The position numbers and the translations under genes were made by a program. DNA of 64,000 nucleotides from Naegleria gruberi (lineage: Eukaryota). The stretch lies in the NCBI GenBank assembly GCA_000004985.1, contig GG738845.1. One strand, 5' to 3'. This document shows positions 6,337 through 40,028 of the stretch, piece by piece. How positions within the stretch are numbered: the stretch's first letter is position 1; every line of letters begins with the position of its first letter. Below the pieces are notes generated by a model, which ran no database searches, was not told the origin of the DNA, and saw only the letters and a program-made list of their open reading frames with translations.

Positions 6337-6450
6337 ATTATTGAAAAGACATTCCGTAAAGATGTGTTTTGATTTTTTTTAAAAACGTTCACCACACCTC
6401 ATTCAATTAATGAATAACGGTGCTTTTGGGAGGGAAAAGTCGTTTTGACG

Positions 6451-6460
6451 TTGGCGCCAA
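6451..6460. promoter_or_regulatory. E2F-like palindrome TTGGCGCCAA in a 152-bp divergent promoter between genes 3799-6336(-) and 6489-8183(+)
   Basis: The element lies 29 bp upstream of the ATG at 6489. It has the same core as the elements at 3731 and 20386. Confidence 0.35.
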
Positions 6461-6488
6461 GAAATTTCTTCTACAACTATTTAAAAAA

Positions 6489-8183
6489 ATGAGTGAACCA
6501 TCATCTATAGACAATCAAGAGGAAGGTTTGGAAAATGCAACTCCGTCACCTCTGCCAGAAGGTGCCGAAGAGGAAACAACACAAGGATCACCAACACCTC
6601 AAAATGAGGAAGGAAATTCTCCTGGTAATACTGACAACGGAGAGGAACCAGAAGATGACGAGGCAGGGTTTAGGCCATATGATCCTAATGGATCATTAAC
6701 TGGAGGAGTGAATGAATCTATTGTACAACAAACATTAAATGATGCAGCAAATGTTATTCAGGATGTTGAGGTATTAAGAGAGGAAGAAAATAGACAAAAA
6801 AGAGAGGAGCACCTAAGGCAACGAATTAGAGAATTGAAAGAAGAGGAACAATCATATTCAAAAATTAATATGACAAATATCAATGCGAATTGGTTATATT
6901 TAATGAGAGAAAGCAAACTAAAGGAGTTAAAAGACTCAATTCAAATCCAAGCTCAAGACCACGACCGATTGGTTGATAGAAAAAATGCAACCATCCAATT
7001 AATGTACAGAGAATTAGACGAGTCTGAAGAGCAATACAGATCTGCTTTGAGGACTCATATGCAACACATAGAGGAACTTCTTCAATTACAAGATCAAAGG
7101 TTGACAATATTGCATCAAGAGTTTAACAATGATCTGTATCTATTAAAAAAGGAATATGAAGAGGAAACGCAAGAATTAAGACAAAAACACAAGCAGGAAA
7201 TGCAAGAATGGGAGGAAATAACAAAAGAAATGGAAAAGAGGGAAGAAAAAACCAACGAAACAATGGAACTCGATTTTGCTCAAACAAAGGAAAAGATAAA
7301 AAATAGATATCAGGAAGAATTGATCCAAATGGTTGGTAATATGAATGACAAGATTGAGGAGTATAGAAAAATTACAAAGCAGGAAAACAACGACCACTAC
7401 GAATCAATGAATCAAAAATATAAGGATTATATTATTTTAAGAGAAAGAGATAGTAGTTACATTGAAATTATCAAAACTCAGACTTATCAAATTAAAATGA
7501 AGGAAGAGGCCCTTGCCCATTGGAAAGCTAAATGGTTAAACAATTTAAGAGAATGTGAAGAAAGAAATAATAAGCTCATTAAAGAAAAAGACCAACTTGC
7601 TCAACACTTTAAAGAATTGAAAAAGAAAATGAATTCATTCAGAGAATCAGAGAAGAAGAGGTTAACAGAACTTGTCAAAATGAGTACAGAAACAAAAGAA
7701 GCTCTTAAAGAAAAGCTCGAAAAAGCTTCAAGAATACTCAAATTGTCGGAAGTCAATAGGAGATACGAAACGGAAAGAGAGAGATTACTTCCTTTCGAAA
7801 GTGATATGGAAAACCATGTTGGTTTAGTTTCAGTCGCAGAGTCATCCATTGAGGAGTCTAATGTCGATGTTGATGAAAAGAACTTTTCTGAATCTGAGTG
7901 GCAACAACTGAATAGATTTTACAAAAGATACAATAAGGTGTTGCTGGATAATCTTGCCCTTGATCAAGAGAAGGAGCACCTGGTTGACCAAAACAAAAAG
8001 CTCAGAGACATGCTTAAACAATATCTTGATGGTATTTCAGTTAATGAAGATGTCCTTAACAATAGAAACCCTCTGTTGATTGTGGACCCTCTCACAAAGG
8101 GTAAGTCTGCCAATGAGGATAAACATATGGTTGTTGTTACATCTGATAACGGTGGTGGGGAAAAGGTAAAGGTTTCCAATTAA
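6489..8183 (+). CDS. Coiled-coil flagellar protein, like a nexin-dynein regulatory complex subunit (DRC1/DRC2, the CCDC164/CCDC65 family)
   Basis: The genuine ATG is at 6489; the ORF-track start at 6420 is a GTG. The product has an acidic N-terminus followed by a long coiled coil. It contains MYRELDESEEQYRSALRTHMQHIEELLQLQDQRL and, near the C-terminus, LKQYLDGISVNEDVL...NPLL. As I recall them, these resemble the NYD-SP28 and sperm-tail domains of DRC1/DRC2. Confidence 0.45.
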   Translation: MSEPSSIDNQEEGLENATPSPLPEGAEEETTQGSPTPQNEEGNSPGNTDNGEEPEDDEAGFRPYDPNGSLTGGVNESIVQQTLNDAANVIQDVEVLREEENRQKREEHLRQRIRELKEEEQSYSKINMTNINANWLYLMRESKLKELKDSIQIQAQDHDRLVDRKNATIQLMYRELDESEEQYRSALRTHMQHIEELLQLQDQRLTILHQEFNNDLYLLKKEYEEETQELRQKHKQEMQEWEEITKEMEKREEKTNETMELDFAQTKEKIKNRYQEELIQMVGNMNDKIEEYRKITKQENNDHYESMNQKYKDYIILRERDSSYIEIIKTQTYQIKMKEEALAHWKAKWLNNLRECEERNNKLIKEKDQLAQHFKELKKKMNSFRESEKKRLTELVKMSTETKEALKEKLEKASRILKLSEVNRRYETERERLLPFESDMENHVGLVSVAESSIEESNVDVDEKNFSESEWQQLNRFYKRYNKVLLDNLALDQEKEHLVDQNKKLRDMLKQYLDGISVNEDVLNNRNPLLIVDPLTKGKSANEDKHMVVVTSDNGGGEKVKVSN

Positions 8184-8216: not shown

Positions 8217-9991
8217 TTAGTTATCATCTTTATTCTGGATAGAATAGTCATCTCTATCCACAATCTTCATCCAACTTACACAATCCAATAAAAACTTTGT
8301 ACAAATAACGGTATGACCAGTTTCTCGTTCAACTTTAGCAGCATTTTCAATGGTAATTTCATTGTCACCAATGACAATATTATCATATTTTGATTTCCTT
8401 TGTGGTTTTTTAAAAGCAGTTTGAGAAACTGTTCCACCACCAAACTCTACTAGTTCAGTTAACTCTTTCTTTGTTGGATTTTTTGCCTTGGGATCAAATT
8501 TTCCCATAAAATAGAACCTGTAACCTGAAAATAATCTAGTATCTCCATTTGCCAATCTCTCTCTTGCTACTTTGCAAGAATCATATTTTACATTTGAATC
8601 TCCAAGAGCACAATATTCCAGTTCGTCAATATGAGAATTAGAGCTAATTACTTTTTCAATCCAATCAACTCCTACAATCCACACTCCAGATACTACTCCT
8701 ATACAATATTTAATAGTTCTTCGTGAATATCTATTATCATCCAAAGTGGTTATGAGATGAGTTACCTCGTGAGTAAATTCTGTAACTACATCAGCCCCAA
8801 GAACTTTTGCAGCCAAATCTAGCTTCTTCTTTGTGTCTCCATTAAGATTAGAGCCAATTAAACAAAGTTTTTTGAGTTTAGATCTCGATATTCTTTTCCT
8901 GCCAGTGGTGCTGGAACTTGTTTGAGAGTTTGTTTGCTGAGAAATGGCCGTGCTTACACTTGGTGGAACCAGCTCAGAAGGTTGGAAATTACTGGTAAAC
9001 GTTGTTAAGAAGGGAAACTTTTCATTCGAAAACCCAAACACACCATATATATCACTCAAATCAGATAGTAAATCCTCAATTTGTGATAACTTGAGTCTTT
9101 TAGCGCTCAAGTCAGAATCCACTTTTGATAATGCCTCCTTTGATCTACTGCCAGAACTAGCATCAATTATTGCTGTTGTTGAAGAATCTGAAATATTTCC
9201 ATCCTGCTCTGATGAAGAGGAAGGTTTACTTCTTGTAAACTTTCTCTTTCTGGTTAATGTTGTAGAAGTGGAGCTGCTTCCATAAATGTTATTAGTATTT
9301 GATTTTCGATTTGGTTGGGTAGGTTTTGGTGTTTTAAACTCGATATTATTTGCGGCAAGTTTGGTTGGATCGGGATACATTGAGCATAATTCTTCATATG
9401 TGTTTCCAGTTGTTGAATTTGGGATGTTATCAGAAACTACTTGTCGTTTTGGAGAAGATGGTTGTAATTCTATTGTTTGATTGAATTTCTTCTTCAATGA
9501 ATGAAATGCCTCAATCAGATTGGCAAGAGATTGCATAGGCATTAAATCTCTCTTGGATAGGATTGGTGTTTTACATAGAGGACACTCTTTCTTAGTCTTC
9601 ATACCCTCTTCAATACATTCATAACAGTAAATGTGACTGCAATGGGTGGCTGTTGGTTCTGTCCATACATCCATACTATGAATTCAAGTAGTTAGTTTAT
9701 AGTTGAAGGAAATTTTGATGTGAATTAAAATTTTAATTAGAAAATCCAATTATCAATCTTAACCTACCAAATAGCACAGCGTAATTCACTTTCAAAGGCA
9801 TCAAAATCCCTATTGGTTAATGGAAACGGTTGAAACTCTGTACTATTTTTGTTTGGAGGGGTTGGAAAACTATCAGATGGTGGCATTGAATGTTCATCAT
9901 CAGCAAAATCCAATCTCATAGAATCCGAAGTTTTGGAATTTTCTATTGGAGAAACTTTTTGATCCGACGATGAGGTTTTTCGTCTAGGCAT
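8217..9991 (-). CDS. BRCA1-like protein with an N-terminal C3HC4 RING finger and C-terminal tandem BRCT domains. Exons 9991-9768 and 9675-8217.
   Basis: ORF 8217-9674 has a half RING (HCSHIYCYEC...CPLCKTPI) and two BRCT repeats with W...C/S motifs (WIVGVDWIEKV, LDCVSWMKIV). The upstream ORF 9764-9991 starts at a genuine ATG and ends ...ESELRCAI. It joins through a 92-bp intron (GTAGGT..TTCATAG, 9676-9767) in phase 2. The junction creates CAIC, completing C-x2-C-x11-C-x-H-x3-C-x2-C-x10-C-x2-C. The completed RING resembles the human BRCA1 RING [45 protein letters not shown]. Confidence 0.75.
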
Positions 9992-10156
9992 TTTTTATTG
10001 TAACTGTATTTAAAACAATTCCTCCACTATTACGAATTGTAAAAAGGTTATTAATTCTTGCAAATTAAATCACCATTTTGAATAAATTAAATAATAAAAT
10101 TTTAGATTATTAATTTCGGATATTTTGTTGTTATTTATTTTACGCCATTTAAAAAA

Positions 10157-11899
10157 ATGCTTCGTTCTGTCGTTAAAGGTGCTTCACATTGTTTGTCAAA
10201 TAAGAATTCATCATCTTTGCTGGTTAGTCAAAGATTGTTGAGATCATCACAACAACATTATTCCACCGGACCAACATTCCAATATGAAGATCTCTTCCAA
10301 GTTGGAAAAGATGGAACTGAATATAGGTTAGTCAGCAAGGATCACATTTCCACCATCTCTGTTAAAGATGAAAAAAGTGGTGAAACCAAGGAAATTTTAA
10401 AAGTTGAACCAGAAGCCCTTTCAAAGATCACACAAGCTGCCATTTCTGATATTCAATATCTTTTACGTCCAGCCCACTTAAAACAACTTTCAAATATTTT
10501 GAAGGATCCAGAGGCTTCCCAAAATGATAGATTTGTAGCCATGACTCTTTTGAAAAATGCAGTTATTGCATCTGGAAGAAAACTTCCTGGTTGTCAAGAC
10601 ACCGGTACTGCTATTGTTATGGGCAAGAAGGGACAATTTGTTTGGACTGATGGAAAGGATGAAAAACATATTTCAGAAGGTGTTTTCAATACATACACCA
10701 AGCAATATTTGCGTTATTCTCAAGTTGCTCCATTAAATATGTACGAGGAAAAGAACACTGCTTGTAACTTGCCAGCTCAAATTGATTTATATGCCACTGA
10801 TGGTGATGAATACAAGTTTTTATTTATTGCTAAAGGTGGAGGTAGTGCCAATAAGACTTATCTTTACCAACAAACAAAGGCATTGTTGAACCCTGCCTCA
10901 CTAATGAAATTCTTGGAAGAAAAAATCAAATCAATTGGTACATCTGCCTGTCCACCATATCACTTGGCTATTGTCATTGGTGGTTTGAGTGCTGAACTCA
11001 CTCTTAAAACTGTCAAATTGGCCAGCACCAAATATTATGATGAATTGCCAACATCTGGTAGTCCAGGTGGTAGAGCTTTCCGTGATGTTGAATTGGAAAA
11101 GGAAATTTTAAAACTGACTCAAAAAATGGGTATTGGTGCTCAATTTGGCGGTAAATATTTCTGTCATGATATTAGAGTTATTCGTTTGCCACGTCATGGT
11201 GCTTCCTGCCCTGTTGGTATTGGTGTCTCTTGTTCTGCTGATAGACAAGTAAAAGGAAAAATTACCAAGGATGGTATCTATTTGGAAAGATTAGAAACTG
11301 ATCCAGCCCAATACCTCCCAGAAGTAAAAGAAAAAGATTTGAGTGAACAAGTTGTCAAGATTGACTTGAATAGACCAATGAAGGATATTTTGAGTGTTCT
11401 GAGCAAATACCCAATCAAGACAAGACTTTCATTGTCTGGTCCATTAATAGTTGCTCGTGATATTGCCCATGCTAAATTGAAGGAAAGACTTGATAGAGGA
11501 GAAGGTTTGCCAGATTATGTCAAAAATCATATTATTTATTATGCTGGTCCAGCCAAGACTCCTGAAGGATATGCCTCAGGTTCTTTCGGTCCAACCACTG
11601 CAGGTAGAATGGACTCATATGTAGACCTCTTCCAAAAGAATGGTGGTAGTTTAATCACTTTGGCTAAGGGTAACAGATCTCGTGAAGTCACTAAAGCTTG
11701 TTCTGAAAATGGTGGCTTCTATTTGGGATCTATTGGTGGTCCAGCTGCTATCTTGGCTGCTAATAACATCAAGAAGGTTGAAGTTGTTGAATATGCTGAG
11801 TTAGGTATGGAAGCTATCTGGAAGATTGAAGTTGAAGATTTCCCTGCATTCATTATTGTTGATGACAAGGGTGCTGACTTTTTCAAGGATTTGAACTAA
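10157..11899 (+). CDS. Class I fumarate hydratase (Fe-S dependent, FumA/FumB type, fused alpha and beta domains) with an N-terminal mitochondrial-type presequence
   Basis: The ATG at 10157 follows AAAAAAA. The 580-aa product has the class I fumarase N-terminal catalytic domain and a C-terminal beta domain (...[11 protein letters not shown]..., ...[14 protein letters not shown]..., ...[26 protein letters not shown]...). The presequence is Arg/Ser-rich ([36 protein letters not shown]). Confidence 0.9.
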
Positions 11900-12307: not shown

Positions 12308-12320
12308 TTTTCCCGCCAAT
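12308..12320. promoter_or_regulatory. E2F-like element TTTTCCCGCCAAT, 33 bp upstream of the CDC16 ATG
   Basis: A TTTCCCGCC core sits in an AT-rich 80-bp intergenic region. Confidence 0.35.
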
Positions 12321-12352: not shown

Positions 12353-14313
12353 ATGCAACAATTACCAACAACACCTAGTTTTATTCTGGACTCGATAAAG
12401 AAGAAAGTAGAGTTTTTTATGGATCAACAGGAATATAGGAATGCCATATTTCATGCAGATAAATTATATCATTTAACTTTTCAAAATAAGAGAGATTGGA
12501 GTGTAAACAAAATTGAAAATTATTCCGATAAAGAACACGAAGCAATCTACTTGTTGGCTAAATCTTTCTATGGATCGGGGCAATACAAGAGAGCTTTACA
12601 TTTACTTACATCATCATTTGTAAATTTTTCTCAAACAGCACCAATGGACTGTTTCTTTTTGGCTGCTAAATGTTTGGAAAGATGTGACGATTGGTTGGAA
12701 ATTCTGAGCTTATTAGGCGACAATGATAATGAATTTGAACAAATCTTGGCAAGAAATGGATCTGAAAAGGTTGGTATTTCATTTTTATTACGTAACTACA
12801 ACTTGTAAAGTTTATTGCCAGTTTGTGTTTTTTAAGAGCCAAATCATTTGACATGATTGATAACAAACAGAGAGCAATTACATGGTATTCAAAGACTCTT
12901 GTTAATGACCCAAATTTTTATGAAGCATTTGAGAAATTAGTTGAAAAGAATTTATTGACAAACGCAAGTCAAGTATCACTTTTAAATCAAATTAATTTTT
13001 CCCAAGAGGATCAGTGGGTTAAATACTTTTATGAAACAAAAATTGATAGATATAGCTTTGTTATTGAAAATAGTAAGACTGCTCTTAAAAAATTGAGCGT
13101 GGAATATAACTTGTCTAAAAATCATGATGTAAGATGCAGTGAAGCAGAAAGGCACTTTTATTCCCAAAGATTCAATCAAGCTTATGACATTACCAAGCAA
13201 ATTATTGAAGAAGATCCATACAATCAGACGTGTTTACCAATTCATATTCTTACTTTGATTGAACTCAATAAGAAAAGTGAATTATTTTCACTTTCACACA
13301 AATTAGTTGATGATTATAAGGAATCGGCTGTTTCTTGGTTTGCCGTAGCTTGTTACTATTACAGCATTAAAAAATTCGCATCAGCACGGTCTTACTTTAC
13401 GTAAGTATATTCTCATAAGAAGGGTATTGATTGTAAACTCTTGTTACAAAAACTAAATTGAACAACTAGAAAGGCAACTAATCAAAATCCTCACTTTTTG
13501 GAAGCTTGGTTAGGCATTGGACATTGTTTTTCTGGTGATGTAAGTACAAGCAAATACCCTTTGTAAATAATTAAACTTTTCAAAAAGAATGAACCAGATC
13601 AAGCAATGGCAGCTTATAGAACAGCTTATAGATTGTTTACTGGAAGTCATTTACCGCCTCTGTATATTGGGATGGAACATATGAAAATTAACAATCTTAC
13701 ACTAGCTCAAAAATTTATTGAGCAAGCCCTAACAATATGTCCAACAGATCCCCTAGTACATAACGAGTTGGGTATGATTTGCTACAAGTGGAAGCTCTAT
13801 GATGAGGCCAAAAAACATTTTGAGAAAGCCTTACGACTTAATCCAAGAAAAGATGATTACTCGAGTAGTGAAGGAGTTATTACAAACCAATACTCATCAC
13901 ATTTTGTAGATAATGATAATAACCTAGTTGTTCAAATGTGGGAACCCATCCTTTTCAATTTGGCCAATACTTATAGAAAATTGAAACAATATGAACCAGC
14001 ATTAATCAATTACAAAAAGTGTCTGAGTTTACAACCAAAAAATGCCTCAATATACTCTGCTATTGGTCAAACATACCATTTACAACAATACAGTGGCAGC
14101 TCCAATTTACACACAGCTATAGAGTACTACCACAAGGCGCTTGCCCTTCAGCCAGATCATTCATTTACAGCAACAATGCTAAGTAAGGCACTAATTCAAA
14201 TATCCAGTCAATCACTGGAATATTTATTACAAGTTGAAGAACTGAGTGATGAAATGCAATACTCAATAGAGGAAGATGAAAATGCAAAACTCAATCAAGT
14301 TGTTCATCATTAA
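12353..14313 (+). CDS. CDC16: Anaphase-promoting complex subunit 6 (CDC16/APC6). Exons at about 12353-12804, about 12822-13400, 13470-13539 and 13588-14313.
   Basis: Three ORF-track fragments (12353-12808, 12823-13404, 13606-14313) plus a 23-codon exon all match human CDC16 block by block. Examples are LDSIKKKVEFFMDQQEYRNAIFHADKLYHL, CLPIHILTLIELNKKSELFSLSHKLVDDYKESAVSWFAVACYY, HLPPLYIGMEHMKINNLTLAQKF and WEPILFNLANTYRKLKQYEPALINYKKCLSLQPKNASIYSAIG. The introns 13401-13469 (GTAAGT..CTAG) and 13540-13587 (GTAAGT..AAAG) restore the frame. The first junction, near 12800-12837, is anomalous; see the findings. Confidence 0.85.
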
Positions 14314-39705: not shown

Positions 39706-40028
39706 ATGGCCAACGATAAGAAGGTTGATAACGAAGTGGAAAACAAAGTCGATGAACAAGATGTTTTGGAAGATGATGACTTTGAGGAATTTGAAGATGA
39801 AAGTATGTATTATTAATAGTAAAAATCAACAAAAATATGGTCCGATCTTGAATGATTGCTTAATAATTTTTATTATTTAATTGTAATACAACAGAATGGG
39901 ATGTAAACCAAAAGGAAGAACAAGAACAATTAGAATGGGAAGAAGATTGGGACGATGAAGATGTGGACGATTTTTCGAAACAATTACGTGAAGAACTCAA
40001 ACGACACGAAATGCAAGACGATCAATAA
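39706..40028 (+). CDS. SEM1: DSS1/SEM1 family 26S proteasome lid subunit (also the BRCA2/TREX-2 partner). Two exons, 39706-39802 and 39895-40028. Not in the ORF track.
   Basis: The spliced product is MANDKKVDNEVENKVDEQDVLEDDDFEEFEDEK|WDVNQKEEQEQLEWEEDWDDEDVDDFSKQLREELKRHEMQDDQ. Human DSS1 reads ...[50 protein letters not shown].... The intron is 92 bp (GTATGT..AACAG). The ATG follows AAAAAAAA and is only 64 bp from the divergent ATG at 39641. Confidence 0.75.

Follow-up and report, generated by a model that had tools for sequence, protein, structure and literature searches.

Human BRCA1, a protein of 1863 amino acids (aa) with an exon-11-like region, carries an N-terminal C3HC4 RING with its helices (residues 1-109) and a C-terminal tandem BRCT (residues 1646-1859). 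BARD1 shares the RING and the tandem BRCT, with ankyrin in the animal form and a PHD finger in the plant form, and this PHD finger is common to plant BRCA1 and plant BARD1 (PMC5287110). On the nucleosome, residues K70 and R71 of human BRCA1 contact the acidic patch, and P89 and W91 of BARD1 contact the H2B/H4 cleft (PMC13345330). The closest annotated relatives of the gene studied here are those of Naegleria fowleri (XP_044561721, 595 aa) and N. lovaniensis (XP_044551160, 589 aa), whose products are named 'RING-type E3 ubiquitin transferase BRCA1' by UniRef. We describe their counterpart in the amoeboflagellate Naegleria gruberi, a RING-BRCT gene located on the minus strand of a 64,000-nucleotide (nt) stretch of contig GG738845.1 (assembly GCA_000004985.1); we refer to the whole of this stretch as the window, and all coordinates are positions within it. 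We judge it probable, at roughly 0.75, that this is a functional two-exon gene for a 560-aa E3 ligase of the BRCA1/BARD1 family, orthologous to the Naegleria proteins that UniRef names BRCA1 and likely to be the catalytic, BRCA1-type subunit. The N. gruberi protein has the same order of RING, helices and tandem BRCT as human BRCA1, but it lacks an exon-11-like region.

The gene is divided as follows:

9768-9991, minus strand: exon 1, starting with the ATG at 9991-9989 and comprising 74 codons and two further bases, the TG that opens the Cys75 codon.
9676-9767, minus strand: intron of 92 nt (GTAGGT...CATAG), phase 2, within the codon of the second RING cysteine.
8217-9675, minus strand: exon 2, with the last base (T) of the Cys75 codon, residues 76-560 and the stop codon at 8219-8217.

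Before splicing, the locus presents itself as two open reading frames (ORFs): one of 485 aa at 8217-9674 (minus strand), opening with MDVWTEPTATHCSHIYCYEC..CPLC, and one of 75 codons upstream, at 9764-9991 (minus strand), closing with ..ESELRCAIW and a stop. The 3' end of exon 1 at 9768 reads ...CGC TGT GCT ATT TG, and joining 9768 to 9675 creates a cysteine codon (TG^T, with ^ for the junction) and a coding sequence of 1683 nt that stays in frame for 560 aa; retention of the intron leads to an immediate stop after ..CAIW. The GC content of the intron is 23%, versus 36% for the coding sequence, and a CTAAC branch-like site is present. Exon 1 supplies a disordered N-terminus, a helix that precedes the RING, the first RING cysteine (C72) and the TG of the second. 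Because the phase-2 intron splits the codon of a RING cysteine, exon 1 is invisible to ORF callers, which return a product with a shortened RING.

The same organization was found in related amoebae. Exon 1 aligns with the N-termini (from MPRKK...) of the N. lovaniensis, N. fowleri and Willaertia proteins, and the differences between N. lovaniensis and N. fowleri in this exon amount to 0.09, 0.11 and 0.31 for the first, second and third codon positions, indicating that, by this comparison of sequences, exon 1 is evolving as coding sequence, with third positions changing most. We retrieved the N. lovaniensis and N. fowleri loci and tried all splices that could reproduce the annotated proteins; each contains a single intron, longer than that of N. 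gruberi (179 and 191 nt, respectively), in phase 2 and within the same Cys codon, in the context ...CGATGTGC(T/G)ATATG^GT...AG^TTTGGAAGTT. Of the more distant metagenomic relatives, three (P0004, P0010 and P0011) start at M(D/E)IW, exon 1 having been dropped by the ORF caller, and in a fourth (P0009) the frame stays open across this intron site. Since the orthologues share the phase-2 intron and exon 1 is conserved as protein, sequence comparison indicates that the two-exon model of the N. gruberi gene is not due to chance. A preliminary description of this locus had proposed that the 485-aa ORF starts in the middle of a RING, that an upstream exon of 74 codons and a 92-bp GTAGGT intron restore it, and that this exon is hidden from ORF calling. 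The coordinates given there were correct and all three proposals were borne out, the second by the in-frame 560-aa product and the matching introns of the orthologues, and the third by a metagenome gene caller that gave separate ORFs of 485 and 75 aa.

On the spliced protein, we could delimit the following features:

9477-9820, minus strand, intron included: RING module, residues 58-141 (Pfam RING models, AlphaFold2 model of the N. lovaniensis orthologue, alignment).
9573-9778, minus strand: C3HC4 RING, residues 72-109, between a flanking helix and a long C-terminal helix.
9360-9407, minus strand: conserved linker motif GNTYEELCSMYPDPTK, residues 165-180, with a YP.P[ET]K core.
8997-9128, minus strand: helix plus FGFSNEKFPFL motif, residues 258-301 (motif hidden Markov model, HMM; AlphaFold2).
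8232-8888, minus strand: tandem BRCT, residues 338-556 (Pfam; AlphaFold2, with a predicted local distance difference test score, pLDDT, of about 90; alignment).

The restored RING, CAICMDVWTEPTATHCSHIYCYECIEEGMKTKKECPLC (residues 72-109), shows the zinc-ligand pattern C72-x2-C75-x11-C87-x-H89-x2-C92-x2-C95-x10-C106-x2-C109, and splicing is needed for all eight ligands to be present. With the spliced 560-aa protein, four Pfam RING models exceed their cut-offs; of these, zf-C3HC4_2 is matched over positions 1-40 of its 40 (39.1 bits) when exon 1 is included, and over positions 6-40 (29.4 bits) when it is not. Pfam BRCT (residues 344-417, 43.5 bits) and BRCT_2 (residues 456-552, 48.5 bits) are also above their cut-offs, and thus the Pfam search suggested in the preliminary description, when run on the spliced product, recovered the RING and both BRCT models. 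The same Pfam scan of the 560-aa protein detected neither a PHD domain nor ankyrin (no Ank family at E<=1), in which the protein differs from both forms of BARD1.

Alignment of the RING places I74 at the position of BRCA1 I26, L108 at that of L63, K110 at that of K65, and K116/R117 at those of K70/R71. In the AlphaFold2 model of the N. lovaniensis orthologue, helices at residues 69-78 and 132-156 flank the RING, with a pLDDT of about 70-77, and these helices may, as a model prediction, be the counterpart of the dimerisation bundle of BRCA1-BARD1. The truncated RING of the 485-aa ORF is modelled with a pLDDT of 37-57. The tail of the RING (9540-9572, minus strand, residues 110-120; KTPILSKRDL) combines a BRCA1-like Lys-Arg with a BARD1-like Thr-Pro (T88/P89), and both P112 and R117 are invariant in a six-sequence alignment comprising Heterolobosea plus Tetrahymena.

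The linker that follows contains two conserved elements of different distribution. The YP.P[ET]K core is common to Heterolobosea-like sequences and to the compact proteins of Capsaspora, Mortierella and Calcarisporiella (the last two from the Mucoromycota), whereas the helix with its FGFSxEKFPFL motif is strongly conserved only among Heterolobosea-like relatives, as judged with the motif HMM. The former element lies ca. 55-65 residues past the RING, and reads ..YEELCSMYPDPTK, with ENLSQMYPQPEK in Capsaspora and NLSQMYPYPEK in Mucoromycota. Among the BRCA1 and BARD1 sequences labelled as animal or plant, this core was not found except for one match that falls within a BRCT repeat of an animal BARD1. 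Residues 258-285 are helical in both AlphaFold2 models, that of the N. lovaniensis orthologue and that of the N. gruberi 485-aa ORF, and the rest of the linker is predicted to be disordered; residues 258-301 could possibly form a coiled coil or a lineage-specific element for the binding of a partner. The idea that this helix corresponds to the PALB2-binding coiled coil of BRCA1 received no significant support from the motif HMM (best animal BRCA1, E=0.2).

In the tandem BRCT, the residues of the phosphoserine pocket are kept by alignment, namely S350 (S1655 in BRCA1), T395 (T1700) and K397 (K1702), with R394 corresponding to BRCA1 R1699 and an Asn at the position equivalent to G1656. From these residues, the domain likely binds phosphopeptides.

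An exhaustive HMMER profile search of 1.84 billion representative proteins, with a query alignment headed by the N. lovaniensis orthologue, retrieved 17,808 matches at E<=0.001, 230 of them at E<=1e-30, and most of the best 150 align in two stretches, the RING and the BRCT. Named BRCA1 and BARD1 of animals and plants were recovered at E-values of 1e-34 to 1e-46, including clusters named as fish BRCA1, plant 'BREAST CANCER SUSCEPTIBILITY 1', plant 'Breast cancer associated RING 1' (BARD1) and invertebrate BARD1. Compact proteins from Balamuthia, Flabellula, Mortierella, Capsaspora and Peranema were also among the 230. On these sequence matches, membership of the N. gruberi protein in the BRCA1/BARD1 family is secure. 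Together, Pfam, the orthologue gene models, the family search and the structure models support the proposal of the preliminary description of a compact, BRCA1-like protein of ca. 560 aa with a RING and a tandem BRCT.

The N. fowleri and N. lovaniensis orthologues are 53-56% identical to the N. gruberi protein over the aligned region and show the same domain order, and a full-length relative of 586 aa is also present in Willaertia magna. Beyond these, the same architecture occurs in compact proteins from Capsaspora (XP_004366013; BRCA1 in UniRef), Mortierella (KAI1318181; 'Breast cancer 1, early onset'), Calcarisporiella (XP_069253460), Balamuthia (KAL6071313), Flabellula, Peranema and Tetrahymena; they are mostly of 370-620 aa, with 982 aa in Capsaspora, and only 21-30% identical to the N. 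gruberi protein. The Balamuthia mandrillaris sequence (P0020; KAL6071313/KAL6072001), a clear RING plus tandem-BRCT member, is misannotated in GenBank as 'E3 ubiquitin-protein ligase TRIM47'. Several short matches with ankyrin (P0034, P0092, P0141 and others) were considered as possible protist BARD1 and set aside, because they look like BARD1 of invertebrates rather than sequences from Naegleria. Similarly, two N. fowleri entries (P0003/P0160; FDP41_003661 and FDP41_004641) lie on different contigs and are identical at 593 of 595 residues (99.7%), which rules them out as a BRCA1/BARD1 pair; they are probably haplotigs or the result of a very recent duplication.

For the comparison of classes, the RING and BRCT regions were aligned separately with reference groups labelled from the matches of the profile search: 24 animal BRCA1, 12 animal BARD1 with ankyrin motifs, 29 plant BRCA1 and 13 plant BARD1. 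The N. gruberi RING scored 73.4 bits with the BRCA1 HMM versus 63.3 with the BARD1 HMM, and over the RING region 33% of its residues are identical in mammalian BRCA1, against 25-27% in BARD1. Its CAIC, CPLCK and SKRDL motifs align with CPIC, CPLCK and TKRSL of BRCA1, and are absent from animal BARD1; in turn, zf-RING_6, the BARD1-type RING model, reached 28.3 bits, below its cut-off of 35 bits. When compared alone with the PDB, however, the RING is not specifically BRCA1-like, because RNF8 (47 bits) and TRIM21 (41) outscore BRCA1 (37.4), with RING1B (38) about level and BARD1 at 32.1. The RING had been called 'strikingly close' to that of human BRCA1, which these scores and the identity of 33% reveal as an overstatement. 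RNF8 has an FHA domain and no BRCT, and RING1B (RNF2), which shares an arginine-anchor motif of the SKRSL type, also lacks a BRCT and pairs with BMI1; each belongs to a different family.

The BRCT pair (residues 338-556) was modelled by AlphaFold2 with a pLDDT of about 90, both in the N. lovaniensis orthologue and in the 485-aa ORF, from shallow alignments of 6-8 sequences. Foldseek superposed the modelled BRCT on that of human BRCA1 with a target-normalised template modelling (TM) score of 0.83-0.89, or 0.83-0.88 for the N. gruberi model taken by itself, and a root mean square deviation (rmsd) of 2.2-2.9 Å, and on that of BARD1 with a TM score of 0.75-0.78 and a rmsd of 3.3-5.1 Å. All of the first 40 PDB matches of the N. 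lovaniensis model, and all of the first 39 of the N. gruberi one, were BRCA1 or BARD1 BRCT structures, with MDC1 and MCPH1 ranking after them. The RING score, the equivalents of I26, K65, K70 and R71, and the modelled BRCT geometry favour a BRCA1-type over a BARD1-type protein, which is a lean from sequence and models and not a proof. It had been argued in the preliminary description that the protein is not BARD1 because it has no ankyrin; the absence of ankyrin stands, but the inference does not follow, since none of the 13 labelled plant BARD1 sequences matches the ankyrin motif used, and the conclusion leans to the right side on other grounds.

If the protein operates as its parts suggest, the C3HC4 RING with its two flanking helices would dimerise, with itself or with a partner, and could recruit an E2 charged with ubiquitin, using the surface around I74, P107-L108 and K110. 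By analogy with K70/R71 of human BRCA1, K116/R117 might anchor the ligase on the H2A/H2B acidic patch of the nucleosome, where H2A would be ubiquitylated, and the tandem BRCT, through S350, T395 and K397, is predicted to bind phosphoserine motifs on partners of the DNA-damage response. The RING and the BRCT together would direct the ligase to chromatin that is damaged or being replicated, favouring homologous recombination.

Trees of the RING and BRCT regions, including one of the concatenated RING and BRCT, were built by neighbour-joining with 100 bootstraps, on saturated distances, and grouped the Heterolobosea in a clade with 96-100% bootstrap (100% in the concatenated tree). Several observations speak against the reading of a spliced gene for a BRCA1-type subunit. 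In these trees, the Naegleria clade joins neither animal BRCA1 nor animal BARD1, and its sisters, Tetrahymena and unnamed sequences, appear at <=25%; besides, plant BRCA1 and plant BARD1 form a single clade (85-88%), and their clustering implies that the split between BRCA1 and BARD1 may not be a single ancient dichotomy. The best whole-chain sequence match in the PDB is BARD1 (8off, 2.5e-18), the BRCT scored 160 bits with the animal BARD1 HMM versus 135 with the BRCA1 HMM, and the Thr-Pro at residues 111-112 resembles the TP(A)W segment of BARD1. The +3 pocket of the BRCT differs from that of human BRCA1, with the M1775 equivalent being a Lys that adjoins a four-residue insertion, and therefore a pSer-x-x-Phe specificity is not to be assumed. 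Additionally, AlphaFold2 may lean to the BRCA1 BRCT, of which there are many structures in its training, and the gene model of N. gruberi is a prediction drawn from the DNA sequence and the gene models of the orthologues.

These observations can be read in other ways. An undifferentiated, single-copy member of the family, acting as a homodimer that combines both roles and orthologous to neither BRCA1 nor BARD1, would agree with the position of Naegleria outside both animal clades, with the plant cluster, which suggests that the pairs may have arisen repeatedly, with a RING tail that displays the BRCA1-like Lys-Arg and the BARD1-like Thr-Pro together, and with the one family member per Naegleria species among the matches listed, counting the two nearly identical N. 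fowleri entries as copies. We nevertheless hold this to be unlikely: that count covers the best 150 of the profile matches, which are unnamed, and neighbour-joining on saturated distances is weak evidence. Much less probable is a non-catalytic subunit of BARD1 type, devoid of ankyrin like plant BARD1. The likeness to BARD1 goes beyond a shared RING and tandem BRCT, and includes the whole-chain PDB match and a level of BRCT sequence similarity that is about equal or a little higher. The second BRCT has an inserted stretch (KAKNP) that resembles the animal BARD1 loop, and a Thr-Pro follows the final cysteine of the RING. As the sequences labelled plant BARD1 show, the name does not require ankyrin. 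The BRCT profiles, however, were rejected as a classifier, because in a control the BRCT of bona fide plant BRCA1 likewise scored about 33 bits better with the profile of animal BARD1, which makes the comparison uninformative. Moreover, the RING keeps the Ile of the E2 surface, the Lys next to its final Cys and the Lys-Arg anchor for the acidic patch, all of them lacking in animal BARD1, zf-RING_6 stays below its cut-off, and the modelled BRCT geometry is closer to BRCA1. That exon 1 lies outside the gene, with translation starting at the ATG at 9674 to produce a 485-aa protein with a crippled RING, is very improbable; this ATG directly follows the splice acceptor and ORF callers give exactly 485 aa, but exon 1 is conserved as protein in four species, two annotated orthologues have the same phase-2 intron, and the RING so produced would be devoid of two zinc ligands and is modelled with the low pLDDT given above, compared with ca. 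70-77 for the complete RING of the N. lovaniensis model. On balance, the product of the two-exon gene looks like a member of the BRCA1/BARD1 family whose RING is of the catalytic, BRCA1 type, its strict orthology to BRCA1 or to BARD1 not being settled by the neighbour-joining tree.

A broader scenario, which we offer as a speculation of low probability, is that Naegleria, and perhaps many protists and early fungi, would have a single homodimer of ancestral BRCA1/BARD1 type. One RING would then unite the E2 and acidic-patch features of BRCA1 with the nucleosome-contacting Thr-Pro of BARD1, and the conserved linker motif (L-S/T-Q-x-Y-P-x-P-E-K), hitherto undescribed, would recruit a partner; the heterodimers of animals and plants would be later, and possibly independent, subfunctionalisations.

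The RING-BRCT gene appears to be missing from the reference protein set of N. gruberi, as inferred from its absence in the collections searched. No N. gruberi protein for this locus was matched in the NCBI, UniRef and EukProt collections, although the entry of its neighbour was: the adjoining ORF at 10157-11899 (plus strand) agrees at every residue with XP_002683156.1, a class I fumarate hydratase from Naegleria gruberi NEG-M. Unlike in N. gruberi, the genes of N. fowleri and N. lovaniensis are annotated. The sole exact database copy of the 485-aa ORF (P0001) is derived from a metagenome, from a contig that agrees with the window at every position of the region looked up and in which a prokaryote-style caller split the gene in two. 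This contig (ENA ERZ929261, k127_76137, 4662 bp, L001; run ERR1078381, PRJEB11402) encodes the same 485-aa, 75-aa and fumarase products, and the sample therefore contains N. gruberi NEG-M-like DNA.

Around the gene, we recorded the following elements:

9992-10156, between divergent genes: intergenic region of 165 bp, presumed promoter, common to the RING-BRCT gene and that of the class I fumarate hydratase (10157-11899, plus strand).
3728, 12309, 20384/20388, 42927, 43346/43350, 48706 and 52893: TTTSSCGC sites, including two overlapping palindromic pairs.

The E2F-like motif TTTSSCGC occurs nine times in the window, versus 1.28 expected, and none of 100 shuffles reached nine; there is, however, no such site in the 165-bp promoter (9992-10156), and the one nearest to the RING-BRCT gene precedes an APC3/CDC27-like gene. 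The gene had been placed 'next to E2F-regulated genes'; the sequence shows an enrichment of the motif in the window, with none in the promoter of the gene itself. The APC3/CDC27-like gene, of the tetratricopeptide repeat type (12353-14313, plus strand), has TTTCCCGC upstream, at 12309-12316; it probably contains introns, because its sequence is distributed among three or more ORFs (12353-12808, 12823-13404 and 13606-14313). On the other side, a NYD-SP28 gene (sperm-tail/ciliary; 6420-8183, plus strand) converges on the RING-BRCT gene, at ca. 33 bp from its stop codon. This arrangement is kept in N. lovaniensis and N. fowleri, and hence in all three Naegleria, whereas the upstream neighbour, the fumarase gene in N. 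gruberi, differs. Farther away, there is a two-exon DSS1/SEM1-like gene at 39706-40027 (plus strand), with MANDKK...LEDDDFEEFEDE in exon 1, ..EWDVNQKEEQEQLEWEEDWDDEDVDDFSKQLREELKRHEMQDDQ and a stop at the end of exon 2, and an intron (GTATGT...ACAG) at ca. 39802-39895. A hidden DSS1 gene 30 kb away had been noted in the preliminary description, and a DSS1-like gene is present, but that distance does not make a functional link; DSS1/Sem1 is also a subunit of the proteasome. No second RING or BRCT is encoded within the 64-kb window.

In all, these results fill a gap in the gene catalogue of N. gruberi, which is a useful correction, if an ordinary one. The family has already been annotated automatically in N. 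fowleri and N. lovaniensis, and the N. gruberi gene is a further member of it and not a new kind of system. Nonetheless, a 2026 review (PMC13315211) that records 'no obvious BRCA1 homolog' for three taxa, N. fowleri, Balamuthia and Acanthamoeba, is contradicted in the case of the first two, both of which have members of the family (XP_044561721 in N. fowleri and KAL6071313 in Balamuthia). A compact BRCA1-family protein of 560 aa in a deep-branching and culturable eukaryote could be a tractable minimal model for the functions of the RING and the BRCT, and it provides a data point on the timing of the origin of the BRCA1/BARD1 pair.

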